Shown here: positions 3,889 through 63,886 of the stretch, in pieces
Layout of the letters: each line of letters opens with the position of its first letter
Numbering within the stretch: position 1 is the first letter of the stretch
Assembly (NCBI GenBank): GCA_039934415.1
Contig: JBDTME010000006.1
Coordinates: 17,206 to 81,205 of the forward strand
From: Patescibacteria group bacterium
GTDB lineage: Bacteria; Patescibacteriota; Microgenomatia; UBA1400; PJMF01
DNA: 64,000 nt
Direction of reading: 5' to 3'
The notes under the pieces: model-generated
Seen by the model: the letters and a program-made list of their open reading frames with translations, nothing else
Database searches by the model: none
Told to the model about the DNA's origin: nothing
Program-made: the position numbers and the translations under genes

Positions 3889-4770
3889 ATGGCTTCCAAA
3901 CGTGATTACTATGAAATTTTAGGTGTAGATAAAAAGGCTTCAGAGGCTGATATTAAGGCTGCCTATCGGAAGATGGCTCTGAAGTGGCATCCAGATCGCA
4001 ATGCAGATAATAAGAAGGGTGCCGAGGAAAAATTTAAAGAGATTAACGAAGCCTACCAAGTTCTCTCAGATAAACAGAAAAAGCAGTCATACGACCAGTT
4101 TGGCCACGCTGCCTTTGAGAATGGTGGTGGAGGAGGAGCGGCTGGGAATCCATTTGCTGGCGGTTTCCGGACGGGTCCGTTTCAGTGGTCGTATCAATCA
4201 AGTAGTGACGGAAATCCTTTTGAAGGTTTTGGTGGTGATGCAGGTTTTGGCGATCCTTTTGACATCTTCGAGCAATTCTTTGGTGGAAGTGCGGGAGGAT
4301 TTAACCGACAACGCAAACCTCGATACTCACTTCGTATAGAGTTCATGGAAGCAGTTAAAGGTGTTGAAAAAACGGTGGTAATTCAGGGTAAAGAACATAA
4401 GATTAAAATCCCAGCTGGAGCTTCAGAAGGGGTCCGGATTCAGTTTGATGATTTTGAAGTGACGATTGATGTCAAACCTGATGCCCGATTCACTCGAGAA
4501 GGCAATGATTTATTTATTGAAGAGGACGTGCCTTTAGTTACTGCCATCATCGGTGGTGAGATTGAGGTTCCCACTGTCAATAATCCTATCAAAATGAAGG
4601 TCAAAGCGGGTACCCAACCGAACTCATTAGTTCGCTTGCGCGGCGAAGGAGTTCCTCATCTTCGAGGTCATGGCAAAGGTGACCTCTACATTCGTCTCAA
4701 AGTCAAAATTCCCGAGCGTCTAACCGGTCGCCAACGAGAATTACTTCGCCAGTTTGACCAAGCATCCTGA
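3889..4770 (+). CDS. J-domain co-chaperone (DnaJ/CbpA-like, no Zn-finger domain)
   Basis: N-terminal J domain (DYYEILGV...HPDRN), a G/F-rich linker and C-terminal substrate-binding domains. CxxCxGxG repeats are absent. Confidence 0.85.
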
Positions 4771-47784: not shown

Positions 47785-48210
47785 TGGTGGAGATGAGGGG
47801 TTATGAACCCCTGTCCGCATACGGCAGACTAGCATCATCTACAGATATAGTTCACTTTTCGTAAAGAGTCGTAGGTGAGTGAACGAACCTGACAACCCTT
47901 CGCTGTTCAAAGTCTTATGTCTTTACGGAACAGTACGTATCGACAGTCACACGAACTTGGTTTTCACCCAATCGTTTCCGCTCGTGAAAGATCTCGATTG
48001 AATGTCTATTTAAGCAGCGTAAGCTAAATTAGCAGCAGCTGGTGTGATAGAAGCAATTGCTGAGTCGACTACTCCGAAGAGTGAGGCAACAGCAGTTTTT
48101 GCTTTACTGACAATTGAATTGACAGTTAGTTTTTTAACTATGTTTAGCCTCAGTAGTAAAGGAGGATCTGCAGATGTTAATGTGCGTACACGTCGAGTCA
48201 ATACATCCCC
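47785..48210 (-). ncRNA. ssrA: tmRNA (SsrA)
   Basis: Minus-strand 5' end GGGGATGTATTGACTCGACG resembles the tmRNA 5' consensus GGGGnUGAUUCUGGAUUCGACG. The 3' end GGACAGGGGTTCATAACCCCTCATCTCCACCA has a T-arm-like hairpin, and the acceptor strand CATCTCC pairs with the 5' GGGGATG (one G-U) before a terminal ACCA. An internal tag reading frame ends ...AANLAYAA-TAA. Confidence 0.8.
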
Positions 48211-53654: not shown

Positions 53655-55360
53655 CTTTTTTTCTGGTAAAATAGGTCACAATCTGGAGAGGTCGCATAGT
53701 GGCCTAGTGCATCGGTCTTGAAAACCGACATCCGAAAGGATCGAGGGTTCGAATCCCTCCCTCTCCGCCATCGTGTACGAATGGCTAAAAGAGCTTCCGA
53801 TTGTTCGGGTGAATAGGGCTTTTCTGTGAGTTCTAACGAAAGGTATTTCTGTTCTAGAGCAGGATAGGCTTTTTTGATCTCTGCGAAGTGTTCTGTGAGC
53901 TCTATATAGAGCTTTCCTGCCTTGATTTTAGGACCATATCCCAATGCCATAAGGATTTCTTTCTTCAGTTCTAACCCTCCATGAAGGAATGCTTCGTGAG
54001 CGTAGGTGGCGAAGTGAAAAGTTCTCTCTGTAAGCTCGAGCCACTCAACGGCTCGCTGCTCAGTTCTTCTGAGTTTCTCCTTTAGTTCGGTAATTTTGGT
54101 TTGAAGTTCGTTCCTTTGTTTCACAAACATGTCATCGTCAATGAGTTCTCTAAACCTCATCTTGGTTAAGTTGTCGAGCTCTGTTTGTGTAGTGACTAAC
54201 GTTTTATGTTGCATGTCATAAATTTTGCTGCGGTCTTCAATTTCTCGGTCGTTGTTTTCATTGAGGACTTCTAGTGCCCAATCTTTAAACTCGGGGAGGA
54301 TGGTAATAGCATCCAGTTCTGTTTCGATTTGCTCTTCGAGTTTTTCGAGTGGGACCACTTTCCTTTGAGTACATTTTATGGTCGTTTTCTTCCTGGTACA
54401 GTGATAATAGGTGTACTCTTTAATCTCACCAGTTTTCTTAATGAATTTTTTCTTCGTTTCGGCGGTATATAGACAGCCACATTCTCCACACCGAACAAAA
54501 CCAGTAAAGGCAAACTCATGCTTCTTGGGGCGTGGTTTACCTTTTCTTCCCATCAATACTTGCACTCGGTCAAACTCTTCCAAGGTGATCATGGGATCAT
54601 GTTTGCCTTCATAGTGTGTGCCTTTATGATTAAGAATGCCTGCATAGAAGACACTATTGAAAATCTTGTAGATCCCGCTTCGAGAAAGCGGTTTTCCTCC
54701 TAAGCGTTTCGTTTTTCTGGTGAGGTAACCCCATTCTTCATTGGCGACTTTCAAAATTTGTGGTGGAGTATACGCTCCAGTCAGCATTAAGTCCCACATC
54801 TTACTAATCAGGTTAAATCGATCTGTATCTTTGGCAATGGTGTTTTCAGTTCTGTCATTGAGATATCCAGCTGGAGCCATGTTGGGGAGCCAGCCTTTTT
54901 GTAACTTTGTCTCTATACCACGTTTCACATTCTTGCTTAGGTCCAGAATGTATTGATTGGAACTAGCGGCTTCAACACTGAAGATAATAACGTTATCACC
55001 TGGTAAATATTCACGATCATAGGTTTGAATTGACTTGAGCACACTTTGTTGGAGTAACCAACTGACACGACCACTGTCAATCGGGTTCCTGGAAAGGCGG
55101 TTAATTTGCCAACAAAGAAGCCCATCAGCCTCACCATTCTCTAATTTATCCATAACCTCTTCAAAGATTGGGCGATTCCCAGGTTTTTTGGCGGATTTTG
55201 CCTCGGTAAAGATTTTTACGATGTGAAGATTATTTTCTTTGGCTAACTGGTTGAGCTTGTTAATTTGGCTCTCAATGGACTGAACTTGCCTGTCTTCGCT
55301 GTCGGAAGACTTGCGTGCGTAGAGAAAGTAGCGGATGTGTTGTCTGTCTTTTGTGATCAT
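53642..55360 (-). CDS. Large serine recombinase (resolvase/invertase catalytic domain + recombinase domain + zinc ribbon)
   Basis: N-terminal YARKSSDSEDRQVQSIESQ catalytic Ser context, a central recombinase domain, a CGECGC...C Zn-ribbon and a coiled coil. The last ~40 codons of the ORF are antisense to tRNA-Ser, so the true C-terminus is uncertain. Confidence 0.85.
   Translation of the reverse strand: MITKDRQHIRYFLYARKSSDSEDRQVQSIESQINKLNQLAKENNLHIVKIFTEAKSAKKPGNRPIFEEVMDKLENGEADGLLCWQINRLSRNPIDSGRVSWLLQQSVLKSIQTYDREYLPGDNVIIFSVEAASSNQYILDLSKNVKRGIETKLQKGWLPNMAPAGYLNDRTENTIAKDTDRFNLISKMWDLMLTGAYTPPQILKVANEEWGYLTRKTKRLGGKPLSRSGIYKIFNSVFYAGILNHKGTHYEGKHDPMITLEEFDRVQVLMGRKGKPRPKKHEFAFTGFVRCGECGCLYTAETKKKFIKKTGEIKEYTYYHCTRKKTTIKCTQRKVVPLEKLEEQIETELDAITILPEFKDWALEVLNENNDREIEDRSKIYDMQHKTLVTTQTELDNLTKMRFRELIDDDMFVKQRNELQTKITELKEKLRRTEQRAVEWLELTERTFHFATYAHEAFLHGGLELKKEILMALGYGPKIKAGKLYIELTEHFAEIKKAYPALEQKYLSLELTEKPYSPEQSEALLAIRTRWRRGRDSNPRSFRMSVFKTDALGHYATSPDCDLFYQKKSYLY
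53685..53770 (+). tRNA. tRNA-Ser (anticodon TGA)
   Basis: Cloverleaf folded manually: acceptor GGAGAGG/CCTCTCC, 3-bp D-stem, anticodon stem TCGGT/ACCGA with loop CTTGAAA, long variable arm, T-arm GAGGG-TTCGAAT-CCCTC, discriminator G and CCA. Confidence 0.9.
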
Positions 55361-59528: not shown

Positions 59529-60191
59529 ATGTCCAACATAGAACATTTGGAAGAAAGTATTGAAGCTCATCTAGAACAAGTAAGACAGGCTCTTGCCGAA
59601 TTTAGAGATAAATTTGCCGTTAGTTTTATCGTTAGCATTTCTGGCGGAGCTGAAGAGCATAATACAACTTATGCACATGATGTGATTTCTCAATTGATTG
59701 TTGGTCTGAAAAACTCTTCTTGCGCTATATTGACTGGTGGTACACAAGGAGGGATCCCCGAACTAGGAACCAGGATTGCCAGAGAACATAAGCTATCTAC
59801 AATTGCAGTTTTTCCTCCTAAAGCCAAAAAATATGTGCTCTTTAATGAGCTTGATTTGCCGATTGAGACACTCCCTCCTTCAGTTGGACCAGCTGGCTTT
59901 GGTTCTGAAACGCCTTCGTTTGCTCAATTACCTGATTATGCTGTGTTTATTGGTGGGTCGTATGGAACTTTGGCTGAGGTGAGCACAATGATGAAAGTAA
60001 ACACTAAACGTAAAAAGGATAATGTTGAGCCGATCTATATTGTTCCAATTGCTGGCTCTGAAGGAGTAGCTGCTTTAATCCCTTTGCTCGTACAACTAAA
60101 CCCCAGTCTTGCCTTCTGTTTGCCTGAGTTTGAATTAACAACCGGAGCAGCTGCGGCTGAATTTATTAAGGAGACTCAGAGTAAAAGATAA
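59529..60191 (+). CDS. LOG/SLOG-family Rossmann-fold protein (second, divergent LOG paralog)
   Basis: ILTGGTQGGIPELG and AVFIGGSYGTLAEV motifs parallel the GGGPGVM / KGGTGTLSE motifs of the LOG protein at 30311. Confidence 0.55.
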   Translation: MSNIEHLEESIEAHLEQVRQALAEFRDKFAVSFIVSISGGAEEHNTTYAHDVISQLIVGLKNSSCAILTGGTQGGIPELGTRIAREHKLSTIAVFPPKAKKYVLFNELDLPIETLPPSVGPAGFGSETPSFAQLPDYAVFIGGSYGTLAEVSTMMKVNTKRKKDNVEPIYIVPIAGSEGVAALIPLLVQLNPSLAFCLPEFELTTGAAAAEFIKETQSKR

Positions 60192-60222
60192 ACTGTCTTT
60201 TGCTTATCAGTAGAAATGTACT

Positions 60223-61173
60223 ATGCCGCTTGTTGAAACCCCAAAAAGTTTGCTCTTGGACAAAGGACCGCTTACAAAATTACAAACAAATAAAACTGAT
60301 CTCTCGAATGCTGAAACAGAATACACAAATATTTGCACTGGCTTTGGTGTAGATCATGAGATTCCGGTCAGGATTGCAGTATATGCGCTTCCGGTACTTC
60401 AAATGGGAGAAAAATTTCTGCGAGCTCAAACTGAGTTTTATGTCGCGGAGGCTTTTGCCACAAAACTCAATGGTCTTGATCCCAATAAGGTGCAAGTTAA
60501 TATTGCCTTGATTAAAGAATACATTAAGCTTTTTAAAACGGAGTTATCTGTTGTAAATTCTCCAGTTTGGCTAGATGAGCGCGACCCCTTTGAAGTTCAG
60601 CGACATGCTCTGACAAAAGAATTGGCTAAAATATTAAGAGAGCATGGTTCAGAAAGAATAATTCGTTTTGCTGACAGTCGGAATGGCGATGAATCTCTGG
60701 CATATATAGCATCGCATGCCCTTTATATGTGGGACACTCTTAATGTTGACGAAGATAAATTCATCACTGAGAGAAATGTCTCTCCGCAATCATTATTGAT
60801 GGTTGGAGGACCAGCAGAAAAACTTTTTTTTGAAGCTCGGCAGTTGCTATTGAGTCACTTTCCTACAGTTTCAACTCGCTCTACAGTCCAAGGTTTTACC
60901 GAAATCGGTCGTCGTCCACCATATTATGCTGTTGATAGTGAAATGGTTGTTAATGGCAAGAATAATTTAAGAATTGGCTTTGAAGAAATCATGTCTATTT
61001 CTGATCCTGATGCACTTAGAGATTCGCTTTACCTGATTATCAGTTTGTCAGAAACCTTAACATTTGACGATATTCCTAGGGTGAAAAAGGGTCAAATCAA
61101 ACCTCAAGAGCTTGAAGATCTGACATCAGCTTGCAATAAGCTACAGAAGATTATTGCCCAACTAAGAAGCTGA
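60223..61173 (+). CDS. Hypothetical protein (316 aa), island cargo
   Basis: ORF with AGGAG-like context. Weak HIGH-like stretch (TGFGVDHEIP) but no KMSKS, so no confident family. Confidence 0.3.
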   Translation: MPLVETPKSLLLDKGPLTKLQTNKTDLSNAETEYTNICTGFGVDHEIPVRIAVYALPVLQMGEKFLRAQTEFYVAEAFATKLNGLDPNKVQVNIALIKEYIKLFKTELSVVNSPVWLDERDPFEVQRHALTKELAKILREHGSERIIRFADSRNGDESLAYIASHALYMWDTLNVDEDKFITERNVSPQSLLMVGGPAEKLFFEARQLLLSHFPTVSTRSTVQGFTEIGRRPPYYAVDSEMVVNGKNNLRIGFEEIMSISDPDALRDSLYLIISLSETLTFDDIPRVKKGQIKPQELEDLTSACNKLQKIIAQLRS

Positions 61174-61174
61174 A

Positions 61175-61468
61175 ATGAATGCACGAGTTGTCTGATCTGG
61201 AGTGACCTCACCGGTTATCTTTCAACAGCTGTGCCGTATGGGCAGGATGGCTATTGAATAAGGCTATTGATTTTAGTACAATACTGGTTGTTTACAGTTG
61301 ATATAAAGCATTTGACTGGAGTCACGATCCAGAAGCTGCGAGTCAAAATACTCGACGGAAATTGAGCCGTAAAATACAATAGCCGATGTCGCGTATGCGG
61401 AGCCGGCCTGAGAGCTCAAGAATTAATATTCTTGAGAATAAGGATGGGACCGCGGGAGGTCCTTTTTT
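61175..61468 (+). ncRNA. Candidate T-box-like leader or structured RNA ending in an intrinsic terminator
   Basis: AAGGATGGGACCGCGGGAGGTCCTTTTTT contains a near-consensus T-box sequence (AGGGUGGNACCGCG, here AGGAUGGGACCGCG). A terminator hairpin GGACC-N6-GGTCC-T6 overlaps it. Upstream are internally repetitive G(C/U)CG(C/U)GUAUG(G/C)G(C/G)AG blocks. Stem I and the specifier loop are not resolved. Confidence 0.4.
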
Positions 61469-61554
61469 AATACCTCTCGTTCCTTAGTTATCACTCATTT
61501 GAGTGGTAGTTAATGAACGTGAGGTTTTTTGTTGCAAAAAAAGGAAAAATCTAT

Positions 61555-62337
61555 ATGAATAAAAAAATTGTTTATCAGCAACTTGAAGAAAAGTTTGTTA
61601 AATACAGAGACTTAATCAATATAGCTGTCAAAGAAAATAATGATGGTTTTGTAAGCCTGCGCCAAACAGAACCAAAGACTTATGAGGTTATAGGCAGATA
61701 TGAAACTTTAAGTGACATGAAAGAGAATTTTCCTTTAGTTCCGGTACGACAAGAAGTAAAAGATAAGCTTGATCAAGCAGATAAAGCTTTGAAAGAAATG
61801 AATCCCAATTTACAGCTAGTTGTTGCTTATGGTTATAGAAGTTTGGAAGTCCAACAAAATTATTTTGATATTCAAAAACAAAACTATTTAAAGAACCAAC
61901 CAGAAGATAATGATGAAGAAATTGACGAAATTATTCACCGTTTGATTGCAGTACCAAACGTAGCTGGTCACCCAACAGGAGGGGCAGTAGACGTTTTTAT
62001 TGAAGATACTAGAGATGGTACTAAACTTGATTTTGGAGTTCCAATTTTTACTTTCGACTCTAAAGATGCTTATTCGTTTTCTCCATATATTGGTAAGGAA
62101 GCTCAACAAAATAGATTTTTATTGAGAAAGATAATGACAGGACAAGGGTTTGCCCCCTACGATGGTGAGTGGTGGCACTTTTCTTTTGGTGATAAAGAAT
62201 GGGCTTTTTATTACAAAAAACCGTATGCAGTCTATGAGCAAAAAAGAGAAGAAGTTGTTTTCAAGTTTGCAGAGAATCAAATTCGGGTAAACAAAGAATA
62301 TACCCAGATTGGAGTGCAACAACTGTCTTTCCAATAA
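61555..62337 (+). CDS. D-alanyl-D-alanine dipeptidase (VanX/DdpX, peptidase M15D)
   Basis: YGYRSLEVQ, HPTGGAVDV (HxxGxAxD) and EWWHF motifs. An alternative start at 61513 adds 14 aa. Confidence 0.8.
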   Translation: MNKKIVYQQLEEKFVKYRDLINIAVKENNDGFVSLRQTEPKTYEVIGRYETLSDMKENFPLVPVRQEVKDKLDQADKALKEMNPNLQLVVAYGYRSLEVQQNYFDIQKQNYLKNQPEDNDEEIDEIIHRLIAVPNVAGHPTGGAVDVFIEDTRDGTKLDFGVPIFTFDSKDAYSFSPYIGKEAQQNRFLLRKIMTGQGFAPYDGEWWHFSFGDKEWAFYYKKPYAVYEQKREEVVFKFAENQIRVNKEYTQIGVQQLSFQ

Positions 62338-62399
62338 AAAGACGGGAAGACACGACAATTGACATTGTTTGATACCGATGTAAGATAAAAGGTGTTTAC

Positions 62400-62435
62400 A
62401 GCACCTGCCCATTGCGAGCGAGGTGCTATTTTTTT
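62400..62435 (+). terminator. Rho-independent terminator after the VanX-like gene
   Basis: AGCACCT-N14-AGGTGCT hairpin followed by T8. Confidence 0.65.
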
Positions 62436-62462
62436 AACAAAAGTTTACAATTAAGAGGAAAT

Positions 62463-63311
62463 ATGTCATCGAGAGCAAAAGAAGCTGACAATCCAAGAAG
62501 AAAGGAATCTGAACCAATGCCACTGCAATACTCAGTTTTCCGACCAGGAGGCAATGACACCGCCTTAGTTGTTGGTGTGGAGCGTGATTCTGATAAGCGC
62601 AAGAAAATTAATGACCAAGTGATGAAACAACATTCAAATGTTGAACAAGTTGGTTTTGTGAACCTTGATAGAGATAATCCAGAACTGATGATGGCTGGAG
62701 GTGAATTTTGTGGTAATGCAACTCGTAGCACAGCGTGGCAGATTTTAACTGGAAAACCAGGAGAAGTATTAATGAAAGTCTCTGGAGTAGAGTCAAAGTT
62801 ACGAGCAGGGGTTGATGAAGAAGGAAATGCTTGGGCACAAATGCCTATTTATGCTGATCCTTCCAGAATTACATTTTTGGAAGACGGTAGAGCTGTGGTG
62901 GCTATGGAAGGCATCACTCATGTTGTCATGAACGATATTTATCCAGACGCTTCTCCTGAAGAACTCAAACCAATTGCTCTTAAATTATTGCAACAGCTAG
63001 GTTTAGATAAATCAGTGGCCGCATCAGGCGTTATGTTCTTAACTCCAACTGAGTCAGGTGTGAGCATGAGGCCCGTTGTGCTGGTCAGAGACATAAACAC
63101 ACTTTTTTATGAGACTGCTTGCGGTAGTGGTACGACTGCTGTTGGGCTTCTTGAAGCCCTCAAAAAGGGTGGTTCTATTGAATTGCCCGTCACTCAGCCA
63201 ACCGGTATGCCAATTAATATTAAGGTTTCTTTTGATGGGTCGAAGTTTGAGCAAGCTGTAATTTCTGGTCCAATAGAAGTACTCAATAATAACGAGGAGA
63301 TAACTGTATGA
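62463..63311 (+). CDS. DapF-fold PLP-independent epimerase/racemase-like protein (DapF/PhzF/proline racemase superfamily)
   Basis: FRPGGNDTALV (cf. GNDF), GEFCGNATRS (cf. MCGNGxRC) and ETACGSGTTAV (cf. ACGSGA) place two Cys-containing loops as in DapF. Confidence 0.55.
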   Translation: MSSRAKEADNPRRKESEPMPLQYSVFRPGGNDTALVVGVERDSDKRKKINDQVMKQHSNVEQVGFVNLDRDNPELMMAGGEFCGNATRSTAWQILTGKPGEVLMKVSGVESKLRAGVDEEGNAWAQMPIYADPSRITFLEDGRAVVAMEGITHVVMNDIYPDASPEELKPIALKLLQQLGLDKSVAASGVMFLTPTESGVSMRPVVLVRDINTLFYETACGSGTTAVGLLEALKKGGSIELPVTQPTGMPINIKVSFDGSKFEQAVISGPIEVLNNNEEITV

Positions 63312-63886
63312 CAGATGAAAGAACAGGCAATCATAGTATCGACCGAGTCATGACGGCAGAAGAGCTCAACGAAGCGTTTAATAAAGGACTTATTGAGTTA
63401 TATCAGGCTGTGTTTGCAGATCCTCCTTATGAAGAGAAGTTCACACCAGAGGAAGTAAAAGATGTTTTGCAACTCTACTTTATGCAAGGCGTACTTATGT
63501 TATGTAGAGAAGATGCACAAAGCGTGATTGGTTTTTCAGCATCTGTGCCTTTAGTTTTAGAACAAGAAATTGCTACAATCGCTCAAAATTTTGACATTGA
63601 TCCAGAAACAGTGTGGTACTTTGCTGACTTAGGAGTGAGTAAAGAGCATCGTCGTAAAAAGATTGCTCAAAGCTTAGTTGTGGCTTTACTTGGTGAGACT
63701 CCAGTTGATACATTGCTCATGCGCACTTCAGAAAATAATATTGCTTCTCAAAGAGTTAACCAAAGTGTCGGCTTTGAAATAATTGATGGTATGGAGCAGC
63801 ATGTTCAACAGACCAGACAAAATGGTGAAGTAGAGTCGGATAGAAGAATCTTTCTGAAAAAACAAAAATCAGTCGTGCAAAGTTAA
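63308..63886 (+). CDS. GNAT-family N-acetyltransferase
   Basis: Motif A region LGVSKEHRRKKIAQSLV and an overall GNAT fold. Overlaps the upstream gene by 4 nt. Confidence 0.7.
   Translation: MTDERTGNHSIDRVMTAEELNEAFNKGLIELYQAVFADPPYEEKFTPEEVKDVLQLYFMQGVLMLCREDAQSVIGFSASVPLVLEQEIATIAQNFDIDPETVWYFADLGVSKEHRRKKIAQSLVVALLGETPVDTLLMRTSENNIASQRVNQSVGFEIIDGMEQHVQQTRQNGEVESDRRIFLKKQKSVVQS

Follow-up and report, generated by a model that had tools for sequence, protein, structure and literature searches.

The window analysed here, a 64,000-nucleotide (nt) stretch of DNA from a Patescibacteria group bacterium of the Candidate Phyla Radiation (CPR), carries near its end a leader RNA of about 230 nt (about 61300-61530), followed on the forward strand by genes for an M15 (VanX-like) zinc peptidase, a two-cysteine racemase of the DapF fold, a GNAT N-acetyltransferase and histidyl-tRNA synthetase (HisRS, encoded by hisS). 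Judged by sequence comparison and covariation, the leader is a genuine T-box. Very probably, it senses uncharged tRNA-His and controls read-through into the M15 gene and, by way of read-through at an internal terminator (directly in relatives), also into the racemase, GNAT and hisS genes. The comparisons below draw on 160 loci with relatives of the M15 protein (L001-L160) from genome and metagenome collections, many of which are short contigs and a few of which are duplicated between collections; five further loci were added by exact-protein look-up. The elements of the leader and operon are listed in window coordinates, with the strand in brackets.

61254..61282 (+): sigma-70-like promoter, TTGAAT-17-TACAAT, with a predicted transcript start at about 61289-61292
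61308..61336 (+): ultrashort Stem I, with basal G-C pairs, a putative kink-turn-like (K-turn-like) GA motif (UGA / GA), a 5-bp helix and a 7-nt apical loop
61323..61325 (+): proposed specifier codon CAC (His), the central three bases of the 7-nt loop, with the purine G61326 next to it
61339..61354 (+): Stem II, a 5-bp hairpin with the invariant loop CAAAAU
61356..61380 (+): Stem IIA (CGG/CCG) and IIB pseudoknot (loop AUUG with downstream CAAU), with an F-box-like CCGUAA
61384..61405 (+): variable hairpin separating Stem III from the pseudoknot; an insertion makes it larger in L107
61410..61438 (+): Stem III (61415-61436) with the flanks GAGAG (RRRxG) and AA
61440..61485 (+): T-box sequence and antiterminator, consisting of helix A1 (AAGGA/UCCUU), the 7-nt bulge UGGGACC (61445-61451) and helix A2 (GCGGGAGG/CCUCUCGU) with a basal G.U pair
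61446..61468 (+): T1, a small hairpin GGGACC-GCGGGA-GGUCCU (61446-61463) and U6 (61463-61468), -9.7 to -11.5 kcal/mol
61472..61530 (+): T2, the main intrinsic terminator, a 23-bp interrupted hairpin (61472-61525) and U6 (61525-61530), -27.4 kcal/mol
61555..62337 (+): M15 (VanX-like) zinc peptidase, 260 amino acids (aa), MEO8581976.1; PF01427 at 1.9e-18 and 67.4 bits (cut-off 27)
62359..62435 (+): internal promoter-like TTGACA-16-TAAGAT, then a hairpin GCACCU...AGGUGC (62401-62426) and U7 (62429-62435)
62463..63311 (+): CntK/HisR-like two-cysteine racemase of the DapF fold, 282 aa, MEO8581977.1; Pfam CntK_N
63308..63886 (+): GNAT N-acetyltransferase, 192 aa
63940..64000 (+): first part of hisS, which runs past the window end and encodes a histidyl-tRNA synthetase of 420 aa; a tRNA-synt_His protein follows the GNAT in L162

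The leader RNA and its T-box elements

The T-box motif quoted by the original prediction is present at 61441-61454 (AGGAUGGGACCGCG / AGGATGGGACCGCG). In particular, AGGATGGGACCGCG is the sole match in the 64-kb window to AGGNTGGNACCGCG at no more than one mismatch, where 0.05 matches are expected from shuffled sequences, and the conserved 14-nt T-box sequence AGGGUGGNACCGCG occurs as AGGAUGGGACCGCG with one deviation (position 4, G to A). At the curated gathering threshold, Rfam reports no T-box in the window, only a flavin mononucleotide (FMN) riboswitch, a transfer-messenger RNA (tmRNA) and two tRNAs. In permissive mode, the RF00230 covariance model aligns from its first to its last position (1-219) to nucleotides 61302-61487 at 42 bits, with E-values of 1.5e-7 in a 1.4-kb search and 6.7e-6 in the 64-kb window. 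The score is low because 75 model positions, the whole distal Stem I, are deleted. Moreover, the leaders of five relatives score 40-47 bits with the same model, so that standard annotation overlooks the whole leader family.

The leader occurs in 12 distinct CPR sequences, namely the window, L001 (the same as L084-086), L002, L081 (the same as L082), L083, L087, L092, L101, L107, L119, L163 and L164. All 12 contain GGAGUCACGAUCC and UGGGACCGCG, except that L107 has GAAGUCACGAUUC in place of GGAGUCACGAUCC, with the same loop and a compensated stem pair; the 14-nt T-box sequence is invariant in 10 aligned leaders, and L163 and L164 share the bulge core UGGGACCGCG. Relatives also have a -10-like hexamer before the leader at an equal distance. 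Covariation was tested on an alignment of 10 distinct leaders, using a hand-drawn structure that includes the pseudoknot and 500 shuffles. In this structure, the paired share of cells is 94.3%, and two-sided changes occur at 20 of the 49 pairs; none of the 500 shuffles matches the observed covariation, and sliding the partners by 1-3 columns leaves 35-56% pairing. Compensatory changes affect all five pairs of Stem II, seven of nine in Stem III, two in Stem I, two of the four pseudoknot pairs and one of the three IIA pairs, while in A2 one pair is changed on both sides and two on one side only. RNAalifold was given no structure and returns Stems I, II, IIA and III together with the variable hairpin and the two 3′ hairpins; of its 64 pairs, 20 show compensatory changes. 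The minimum free energy fold of the leader has a z-score of -4.4. The significant covariance-model alignment, the conservation of the leader and its covariation together exclude a chance match.

Stem I begins close to the promoter, which lies only about 20 nt upstream, so that a longer Stem I is impossible. Its base reads GC / (A)UUUGA...(G/A)A-GC, which appears K-turn-like, and its helix covaries, with CG, AU, GC and UA as the closing pair among leaders. The apical loop GUCACGA (61321-61327) is unchanged across the 12 distinct leaders. The stem ends after 5 bp, and the distal platform (an AG bulge and distal loop forming interdigitated T-loops that stack on the tRNA elbow) is absent. Further downstream, the RRRxG...AA purines that flank Stem III match the discriminator signature of T-boxes (PMC7583486), and the G.U pair at the base of A2 is invariant in all 10 sequences; this pair, the flanking purines and the F-box are central to the discriminator and decoding modules of T-boxes (PMC7583486).

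The 3′ part of the leader contains two successive hairpins with U-runs. The antiterminator, with a 5-bp A1 helix, an 8-bp A2 helix and its 3′ strand at 61473-61485, has a computed energy of -14.0 kcal/mol. T1 is located inside it, and the 5′ arm of T1 is the bulge required for pairing with the tRNA 3′ end. T1 is almost invariant; its U-run stays next to GGUCC in L107 despite a 26-nt insertion there, and it is a U5 in L163. T1 may serve as an anti-antiterminator, holding the T-box sequence closed in the OFF state, and possibly also as an early pause or termination site. The 5′ arm of T2 is the antiterminator 3′ strand, making the two folds mutually exclusive (-27.4 versus -14.0 kcal/mol), and every homologous leader keeps T2 as a G+C-rich hairpin with a run of 6-7 U immediately behind it. 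The leader lacks a short open reading frame rich in His codons, and the idea of a His leader peptide was rejected on that account.

The motif that the original prediction described is confirmed, and its T-box reading is borne out. RF00230 aligns end to end at a significant E-value, the core T-box elements are present, and the Stem I and specifier loop whose absence would have spoken for a chance match are there as a K-turn-like stem with a covarying helix; only the score, at 42 bits under the curated cut-off of 93, falls short of the proposed covariance-model check. The hairpin and T6 that it took for the terminator do exist and are terminator-like, but they lie inside the antiterminator and are not the main terminator. 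Nor does the leader end at the motif, as had been claimed; about 70 nt follow, with the antiterminator 3′ strand and the long terminator. Comparing the variable base with tRNA discriminators, as it had proposed, shows that G fits C73 of tRNA-His.

The specificity of the leader is most likely histidine (CAC, tRNA-His), as read from the loop and bulge, because CAC is central and suits the specifier rules, G matches C73, and the gene context is histidine-related. In particular, CAC ends in C and the next base, G, is a purine, as the T-box specifier rules ask (PMC7583486). The variable base of the bulge is G in all 12 leaders (UGGG) and is complementary to C73, the discriminator of G-1-type bacterial tRNA-His, which in E. 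coli is exclusive to that tRNA (PMC3064791). Genes for tRNA-His with G-1 and C73 lie in the module loci L004, L089 and L155, from uncultured bacteria whose M15 proteins are 40-50% identical to that of the window.

No T-box turned up in searches of other loci with these genes: 17 clostridial or actinobacterial-type loci gave none at the gathering score, eight other CPR loci gave none at E <= 0.05, and an nhmmer profile of the leader matched in no other module locus. T-box control is thus confined to one CPR subgroup. A T-box-like match in L026 was discarded as chance, since it falls within a HisRS-like coding hit.

The histidine-linked operon and gene module

The three genes behind the leader are as the original prediction described them at the level of fold or family (Pfam, Foldseek), and it was right that they are unusual T-box targets, with an M15 peptidase first. 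Its proposal of a route that salvages amino acids from peptidoglycan-derived D-Ala-D-Ala does not fit the specifier CAC, the match of G to C73, the HisR-like racemase, hisS and the tRNA-His context. The alanine, D-Ala-D-Ala and peptidoglycan-salvage reading was rejected, as neither the RNA nor the module shows any tie to alanine.

The M15 protein has the zinc and catalytic motifs H-x6-D and E-x-x-H (AGHPTGGAVD and EWWH), which align with VanX 1R44. Its structural model has a predicted local distance difference test (pLDDT) score of 91, and its best Foldseek match, though a distant one, is also VanX 1R44 (E 2.5e-10, 24% identity, TM 0.46/0.59). It scores below the equivalog cut-offs for VanX (NF033115, 40 versus 320) and DdpX (NF007557, 52.2 versus 176). 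Its start is most likely the ATG at 61555, with a ribosome binding site (RBS) AAGGA at 61542, rather than the upstream in-frame ATG at 61513, which lies inside the terminator.

The DapF-like protein is, on its alignments, a probable histidine racemase. Its only NCBIfam matches are the two histidine-racemase models (HisR at 88.6 versus a cut-off of 400, CntK at 83.8 versus 300), and its only sequence relatives in the PDB are HisR (9CR1/9CR6, E 8e-16) and CntK (6JIS/6JIW, E 4e-14). Both catalytic cysteines are kept, and the segments GGND, GGEFCGNA and YETACGSGT align with HisR. Moreover, the proposed histidine-binding residues N18, E65, G68, N69, E206 and S211 of HisR are kept, and only A210 differs (Gly); the equivalent of HisR Glu65 is Ala or Leu in DapF and HypE. 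The GNAT model has a pLDDT of 94 and generic structural neighbours, namely RimI and acetyltransferases for amino acids or their analogues such as PAT/BAR, YncA, ArsN and EctA, so that the fold search fixes no substrate.

The spacer between the M15 and racemase genes contains the internal promoter-like sequence and, within about 15 nt of it, the hairpin at 62401-62435, which would yield a transcript of about 45 nt or an attenuator. The spacer element (62359-62435) is kept in L001, L002 and L083 and is deleted in L081/L082, which encode a 517-aa M15::racemase protein. In folding, the spacer does not stand out from shuffled sequences (z = -1.3), and Rfam gives no significant match to it. With this hairpin after the M15 gene, direct T-box control in the window is certain only for M15, and control of the racemase, GNAT and hisS needs read-through. 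The window's closest relatives encode M15::racemase proteins of 517-531 aa; with the intergenic spacer deleted, they are free of the terminator barrier. The spacer hairpin AGGUG...CACCU was also considered as a second attenuator and rejected, as it is not conserved in L001 or L002.

Across the 160 loci, the racemase is adjacent to M15 in 117 and the GNAT is adjacent in 66, while 79 have HisRS or a HisRS-like protein of about 300 aa without the anticodon-binding domain. Near the module, 20 of 53 tRNA genes are tRNA-His, in 17 loci. The commonest order is [tRNA-His][HisRS] racemase-GNAT-M15 [HisRS-like], and the module is found in contigs labelled CPR, Clostridia, Actinobacteria and others. Further, racemase::GNAT fusions occur in dozens of proteins, including the product of the first gene of L119, and P0162 and P0095 combine racemase and M15 domains in one protein. 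By these gene neighbourhoods and fusions, racemase, GNAT and M15 appear to form a widespread, previously uncharacterised conserved module tied to histidine genes; literature searches turned up no description of the combination of HisRS, racemase and D-Ala-D-Ala dipeptidase genes. That the module accompanies HisRS and tRNA-His in Clostridia and Actinobacteria that lack a T-box at the gathering threshold speaks for a link that is functional and not merely regulatory.

Behind the T-box, the order of genes varies. In the window it is M15, racemase, GNAT and hisS; in L119, racemase::GNAT, M15 and HisRS; in L107, racemase, two other genes, M15 and a HisRS-like gene; in L101, M15 and HisRS; and in L092, L163 and L164, M15 and racemase. 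On this gene content, the T-box would control a histidine-centred operon that usually includes the canonical target hisS.

Several side observations concern these loci. Relatives have additional genes within the T-box operon or behind it. Those of L107 (1447-3998) encode a 522-aa protein of no assigned family and a beta-lactamase-like serine hydrolase, and L002 (6307-8409) encodes a 289-aa protein without an assigned role and an M20 metallopeptidase of the ArgE/DapE/aminoacylase type; an M20 metallopeptidase gene is also present in L003, L012/L108 and L062. In clostridial-type loci, one or two canonical tRNA-His genes and HisRS lie directly upstream of the module. In actinobacterial-type loci (Kineosporia mesophila, Nitriliruptoraceae, Pseudonocardiaceae and similar metagenome contigs), a tRNA(GUG) gene lies about 90-320 nt after M15; it has G1.U72 and A73 and no G-1, and full-length HisRS is next to it where the contig extends so far. 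G1.U72 and A73 without G-1 are identity features of the alpha-proteobacterial 'orthogonal' HisRS/tRNA-His pair (PMC3064791). The actinobacterial-type tRNA(GUG) genes are:

L040: 4832-4903
L057: 2946-3019
L062: 4746-4819
L079: 4754-4827
L138: 4979-5052
L145: 3592-3665
L156: 905-977

Upstream of the T-box promoter, the window (59529-61173) encodes a SLOG cluster-4 protein (220 aa) and a 316-aa protein, the latter (60223-61173) having no Pfam, NCBIfam or PDB sequence match. The pair is syntenic in L002 and L087, and both genes are present, in rearranged form, in L083 and L165. L083 has a second racemase copy after SLOG and the homologue of the 316-aa protein, and L165 has the order SLOG, an aromatic/histidine ammonia-lyase-family gene, a 310-aa homologue and the racemase; HisRS and HisG are encoded there on the opposite strand. 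The two genes may belong to the same histidine-related island; literature searches on SLOG and histidine neighbourhoods gave nothing relevant.

Elsewhere, the window contains the following features:

1428-1546: FMN riboswitch, RF00050, 86.6 bits, upstream of the open reading frame 1611-2525
47785-48210 (-): tmRNA, with the tag peptide AANLAYAA
49001-49077: tRNA-Val(CAC)
53685-53770: tRNA-Ser(UGA)

An sX4 small RNA hit over the tRNA-Ser is weak (43.9 bits, below cut-off) and probably spurious. In L001, from a Paceibacterota relative, a LOOT RNA (RF03000, 82.6 bits, above cut-off) lies at 992-1110 on the reverse strand, about 2.6 kb upstream of the T-box.

Targets, level of control and specificity

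Several points weigh against a tRNA-His-sensing T-box that controls transcription of the whole operon. The 42 bits are less than half the RF00230 curated cut-off. A long Stem I is reported as required in transcriptional T-boxes (PMC7583486), and function is predicted here despite an ultrashort one; Stem II has no recognisable S-turn, making the stabilisation of the codon-anticodon helix a conjecture; and T1, conserved as it is, has no pair that changes on both sides. The evidence on tRNA-His comes from related loci of other bacteria and not from this genome. In mature tRNA-His, C73 forms a pair with G-1, which weakens discriminator matching relative to other tRNAs and is the reason why TBDB omits such matching for His. 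GUC (Val) followed by A in the same loop fits the rule of third-position C and purine equally well. The conserved terminator-like hairpin after M15 makes co-regulation of the later genes uncertain, there is no hisS within 4 kb in L002, and the enzymology of the module is inferred throughout.

The T-box might, instead, essentially regulate hisS, with M15, the racemase and the GNAT representing a separate activity that shares the operon, such as cell-wall D-amino-acid metabolism or detoxification of a histidine analogue or HisRS inhibitor by acetylation and hydrolysis. The operons of the window, L101, L107 and L119 do include a hisS or HisRS-like gene, inside or at the end, and the structural neighbours of the GNAT include acetyltransferases that detoxify amino-acid analogues (PAT/BAR, YncA and ArsN). 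Acetylation and hydrolysis are known to act in this way in MccE and MccF, which detoxify an aminoacyl-adenylate mimic. However, the T-box stands directly before M15 in the window's clade, L002 lacks a nearby hisS, and in L001 hisS comes only after two unrelated genes. Moreover, the module keeps company with HisRS and tRNA-His in Clostridia and Actinobacteria without a T-box at the gathering threshold, and the racemase keeps the proposed histidine-binding residues of HisR. A T-box that serves hisS with unrelated passengers is, on balance, unlikely.

Control could also be mainly translational, by a class II sequestrator like that of actinobacterial ileS, with the hairpin and U-run being incidental. 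Ultrashort Stem I's have so far been described for translational T-boxes, and transcriptional ones are reported to need a long Stem I for fast tRNA capture; mounting of the specifier in an apical loop is found only in short Stem I's, according to the same T-box review (PMC7583486). The TBDB model for short Stem I's was searched in Actinobacteria only. Masking of the RBS is plausible in L092, L101, L107, L119 and L164, where the 3′ arm of T2, GGGAGG (GGGAG in L119), is the Shine-Dalgarno (SD) sequence and the AUG follows 6-8 nt after the U-run. The positions of these sites of SD in terminator are:

L092: about 395-412
L101: about 335-352
L107: about 625-640
L119: about 545-563
L164: about 4118-4135

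In these five leaders, one hairpin, by its position, could both terminate transcription and mask translation. Against mainly translational control, all leaders keep the G+C-rich hairpin and 6-7 U by which intrinsic terminators are recognised. The RBS and the start codon of the window's M15 gene both lie outside T2, and in the window, L081, L083 and L087 the RBS and start codon are 12-25 nt past the U-run and are not sequestered; with the RBS clear of the terminator, control in these four is predicted to be transcriptional. In L001 and L002, the start codon comes within about 13-15 nt of the U-run. Translational control as the principal mode is improbable for this family.

The loop GUCACGA holds GUC, CAC and ACG, and the specifier could be GUC (valine) or ACG (threonine) instead of CAC. 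GUC-A at loop positions 1-4 obeys the rules at the third position and after the codon, and ACG-A occupies positions 4-7. A valine specifier would bring the bulge G opposite A73 of the window's tRNA-Val, and ACG violates the rule of third-position C. Moreover, CAC is central in the loop, mirroring the place of the anticodon in a 7-nt anticodon loop, and the module has no Val or Thr context, being accompanied by hisS, a histidine-racemase homologue and tRNA-His genes. A specifier other than CAC has a slim chance of being correct.

The weakest alternative, that the 14-mer is a chance match in an ordinary terminator or intergenic region with no tRNA-sensing leader, can appeal to the silence of Rfam at the gathering threshold and to the small hairpin and T6, which alone resemble a plain, even bidirectional, terminator, and has next to no probability against a significant full-length model alignment, a 14-mer expected 0.05 times, a 230-nt leader conserved in 12 contigs with compensatory changes in Stem I, II, IIA/B, III and A2, a promoter before it and a second, mutually exclusive terminator after it.

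Proposed mechanism and comparison with known systems

In the proposed mechanism for a T-box that senses uncharged tRNA-His, the CAC in the apical loop of the ultrashort, K-turn-based Stem I would meet the GUG anticodon. The 5-bp Stem II, with its invariant A-rich loop, and the IIA/B pseudoknot would support this contact, replacing the missing elbow-binding platform, and the bulge UGGG would pair with the 3′-CCCA end of tRNA-His. By bridging the CAC loop and the bulge, uncharged tRNA-His would stabilise the antiterminator (61440-61485), allowing RNA polymerase to enter the M15 gene. Without uncharged tRNA-His, the bulge would be locked in T1 (61446-61463), whose own U6 may cause a pause or early termination, and T2 (61472-61525 and U6) would then terminate transcription.

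Three roles for the module can be ranked. In the first, M15, from a family that cleaves the amide bond on the amino side of a D-residue, would free D-histidine (D-His) from acyl- or peptidyl-D-His, and the racemase would turn it into L-His that feeds HisRS, with induction when tRNA-His is uncharged; the GNAT step would have no assigned place. With low confidence, the module may thus combine D-His release by M15 with conversion to L-His by the racemase during histidine shortage. In the second, it would detoxify a histidine analogue or a HisRS inhibitor by acetylation and hydrolysis. The third, a tRNA-His-dependent synthesis of a product containing D-His, fits the dedicated tRNA-His and HisRS copies in Clostridia and Actinobacteria and fits the logic of a T-box poorly.

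The leader is a known kind of element; what is new here is the combination of an ultrashort Stem I with a terminator, the internal hairpin and U-run, the CPR host and the set of targets. Literature searches gave nothing relevant linking T-boxes with Patescibacteria, CPR or Saccharibacteria. Taken jointly, and tentatively, the locus could represent both a new class of terminating CPR T-box, without an elbow platform and with an ultrashort Stem I and two successive hairpin and U-run elements, the first of which would compete with the tRNA 3′ end for UGGG, and a new pathway of a His-racemase-like protein, a GNAT and an M15 peptidase for D-His or acyl-/peptidyl-His, tied to HisRS and tRNA-His charging in CPR, Clostridia and Actinobacteria (there with a G-1-less A73/G1-U72 'orthogonal-type' tRNA-His). 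The claim that both parts hold together may well fail.

A family that pairs an ultrashort Stem I with an intrinsic terminator would test the rule, given in review, that transcriptional control takes a long Stem I and slower translational control an ultrashort one. It would extend T-box regulation to a lineage with minimal metabolism, where curated thresholds miss such leaders (40-47 bits versus 93). Induction by uncharged tRNA-His, together with the fusions and synteny, offers a testable handle on a very common trio of 'hypothetical / M15 / GNAT' genes, and the module suggests an overlooked role of D-His or histidine conjugates in bacteria unable to make histidine.

Compared with the transcriptional T-boxes of Firmicutes (RF00230; B. 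subtilis tyrS, glyQS and hisS), the leader has the same putative basal Stem I K-turn, codon and purine, IIA/B pseudoknot with an F-box-like sequence, purine flanks of Stem III, 14-nt T-box, 7-nt bulge with UGGN, G.U pair at the A2 base, and mutually exclusive antiterminator and terminator with a U-run. Unlike them, it lacks a distal Stem I and thus the contact with the tRNA elbow, it presents the specifier in an apical and not an internal loop, its Stem II has 5 bp without an S-turn, and an additional conserved hairpin with U6 lies inside the antiterminator; the host is from the CPR, an M15 peptidase is the first regulated gene, and the score is 42 bits versus 93. The actinobacterial ileS translational T-boxes (M. 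tuberculosis and N. farcinica; 'class II' in TBDB) share its short Stem I, on a putative K-turn and with an apical-loop specifier, the predicted replacement of the elbow platform by Stem II and the IIA/B pseudoknot, and the discriminator core. In contrast to these, which sequester the RBS, the leader has a strong intrinsic terminator with U6 and, in the window, a free RBS; its Stem II is far shorter and has no S-turn purine string, and it concerns His and not Ile, in the CPR and not in Actinobacteria.

Among enzymes, the racemase resembles HisR of F. nucleatum and CntK of S. aureus in both catalytic cysteines and has HisR Asn18, Glu65, Gly68, Asn69, Glu206 and Ser211, whereas it scores far below the equivalog cut-offs, has no staphylopine (cntL/cntM) context, and is coupled to M15 and GNAT genes (fused in relatives) and linked to hisS and tRNA-His. 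The M15 protein shares with VanX and DdpX (PF01427, MEROPS M15D) the LAS-type zinc peptidase fold with H-x6-D and E-x-x-H, but it has additional N- and C-terminal elements, fails their equivalog cut-offs and lies in a histidine-related setting with no van or ddp context. Finally, the N-succinylamino-acid racemase pathway of Geobacillus kaustophilus, reportedly described by Sakai et al. in 2006, is said to achieve irreversible conversion of D- to L-amino acids with a GNAT acyltransferase, a racemase and a metallo-amidohydrolase. That racemase is reportedly of the enolase superfamily, acting on N-acyl amino acids alongside an M20 hydrolase, whereas the racemase here has two cysteines, the DapF fold and relatives with free histidine as substrate, next to a hydrolase of the M15 family. 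In the pathway so described, as here, a single operon unites a GNAT-fold acyltransferase with a racemase and a metallo-hydrolase (a peptidase or an amidohydrolase), and the pathway provides a precedent for stereo-inversion or salvage of an amino acid.

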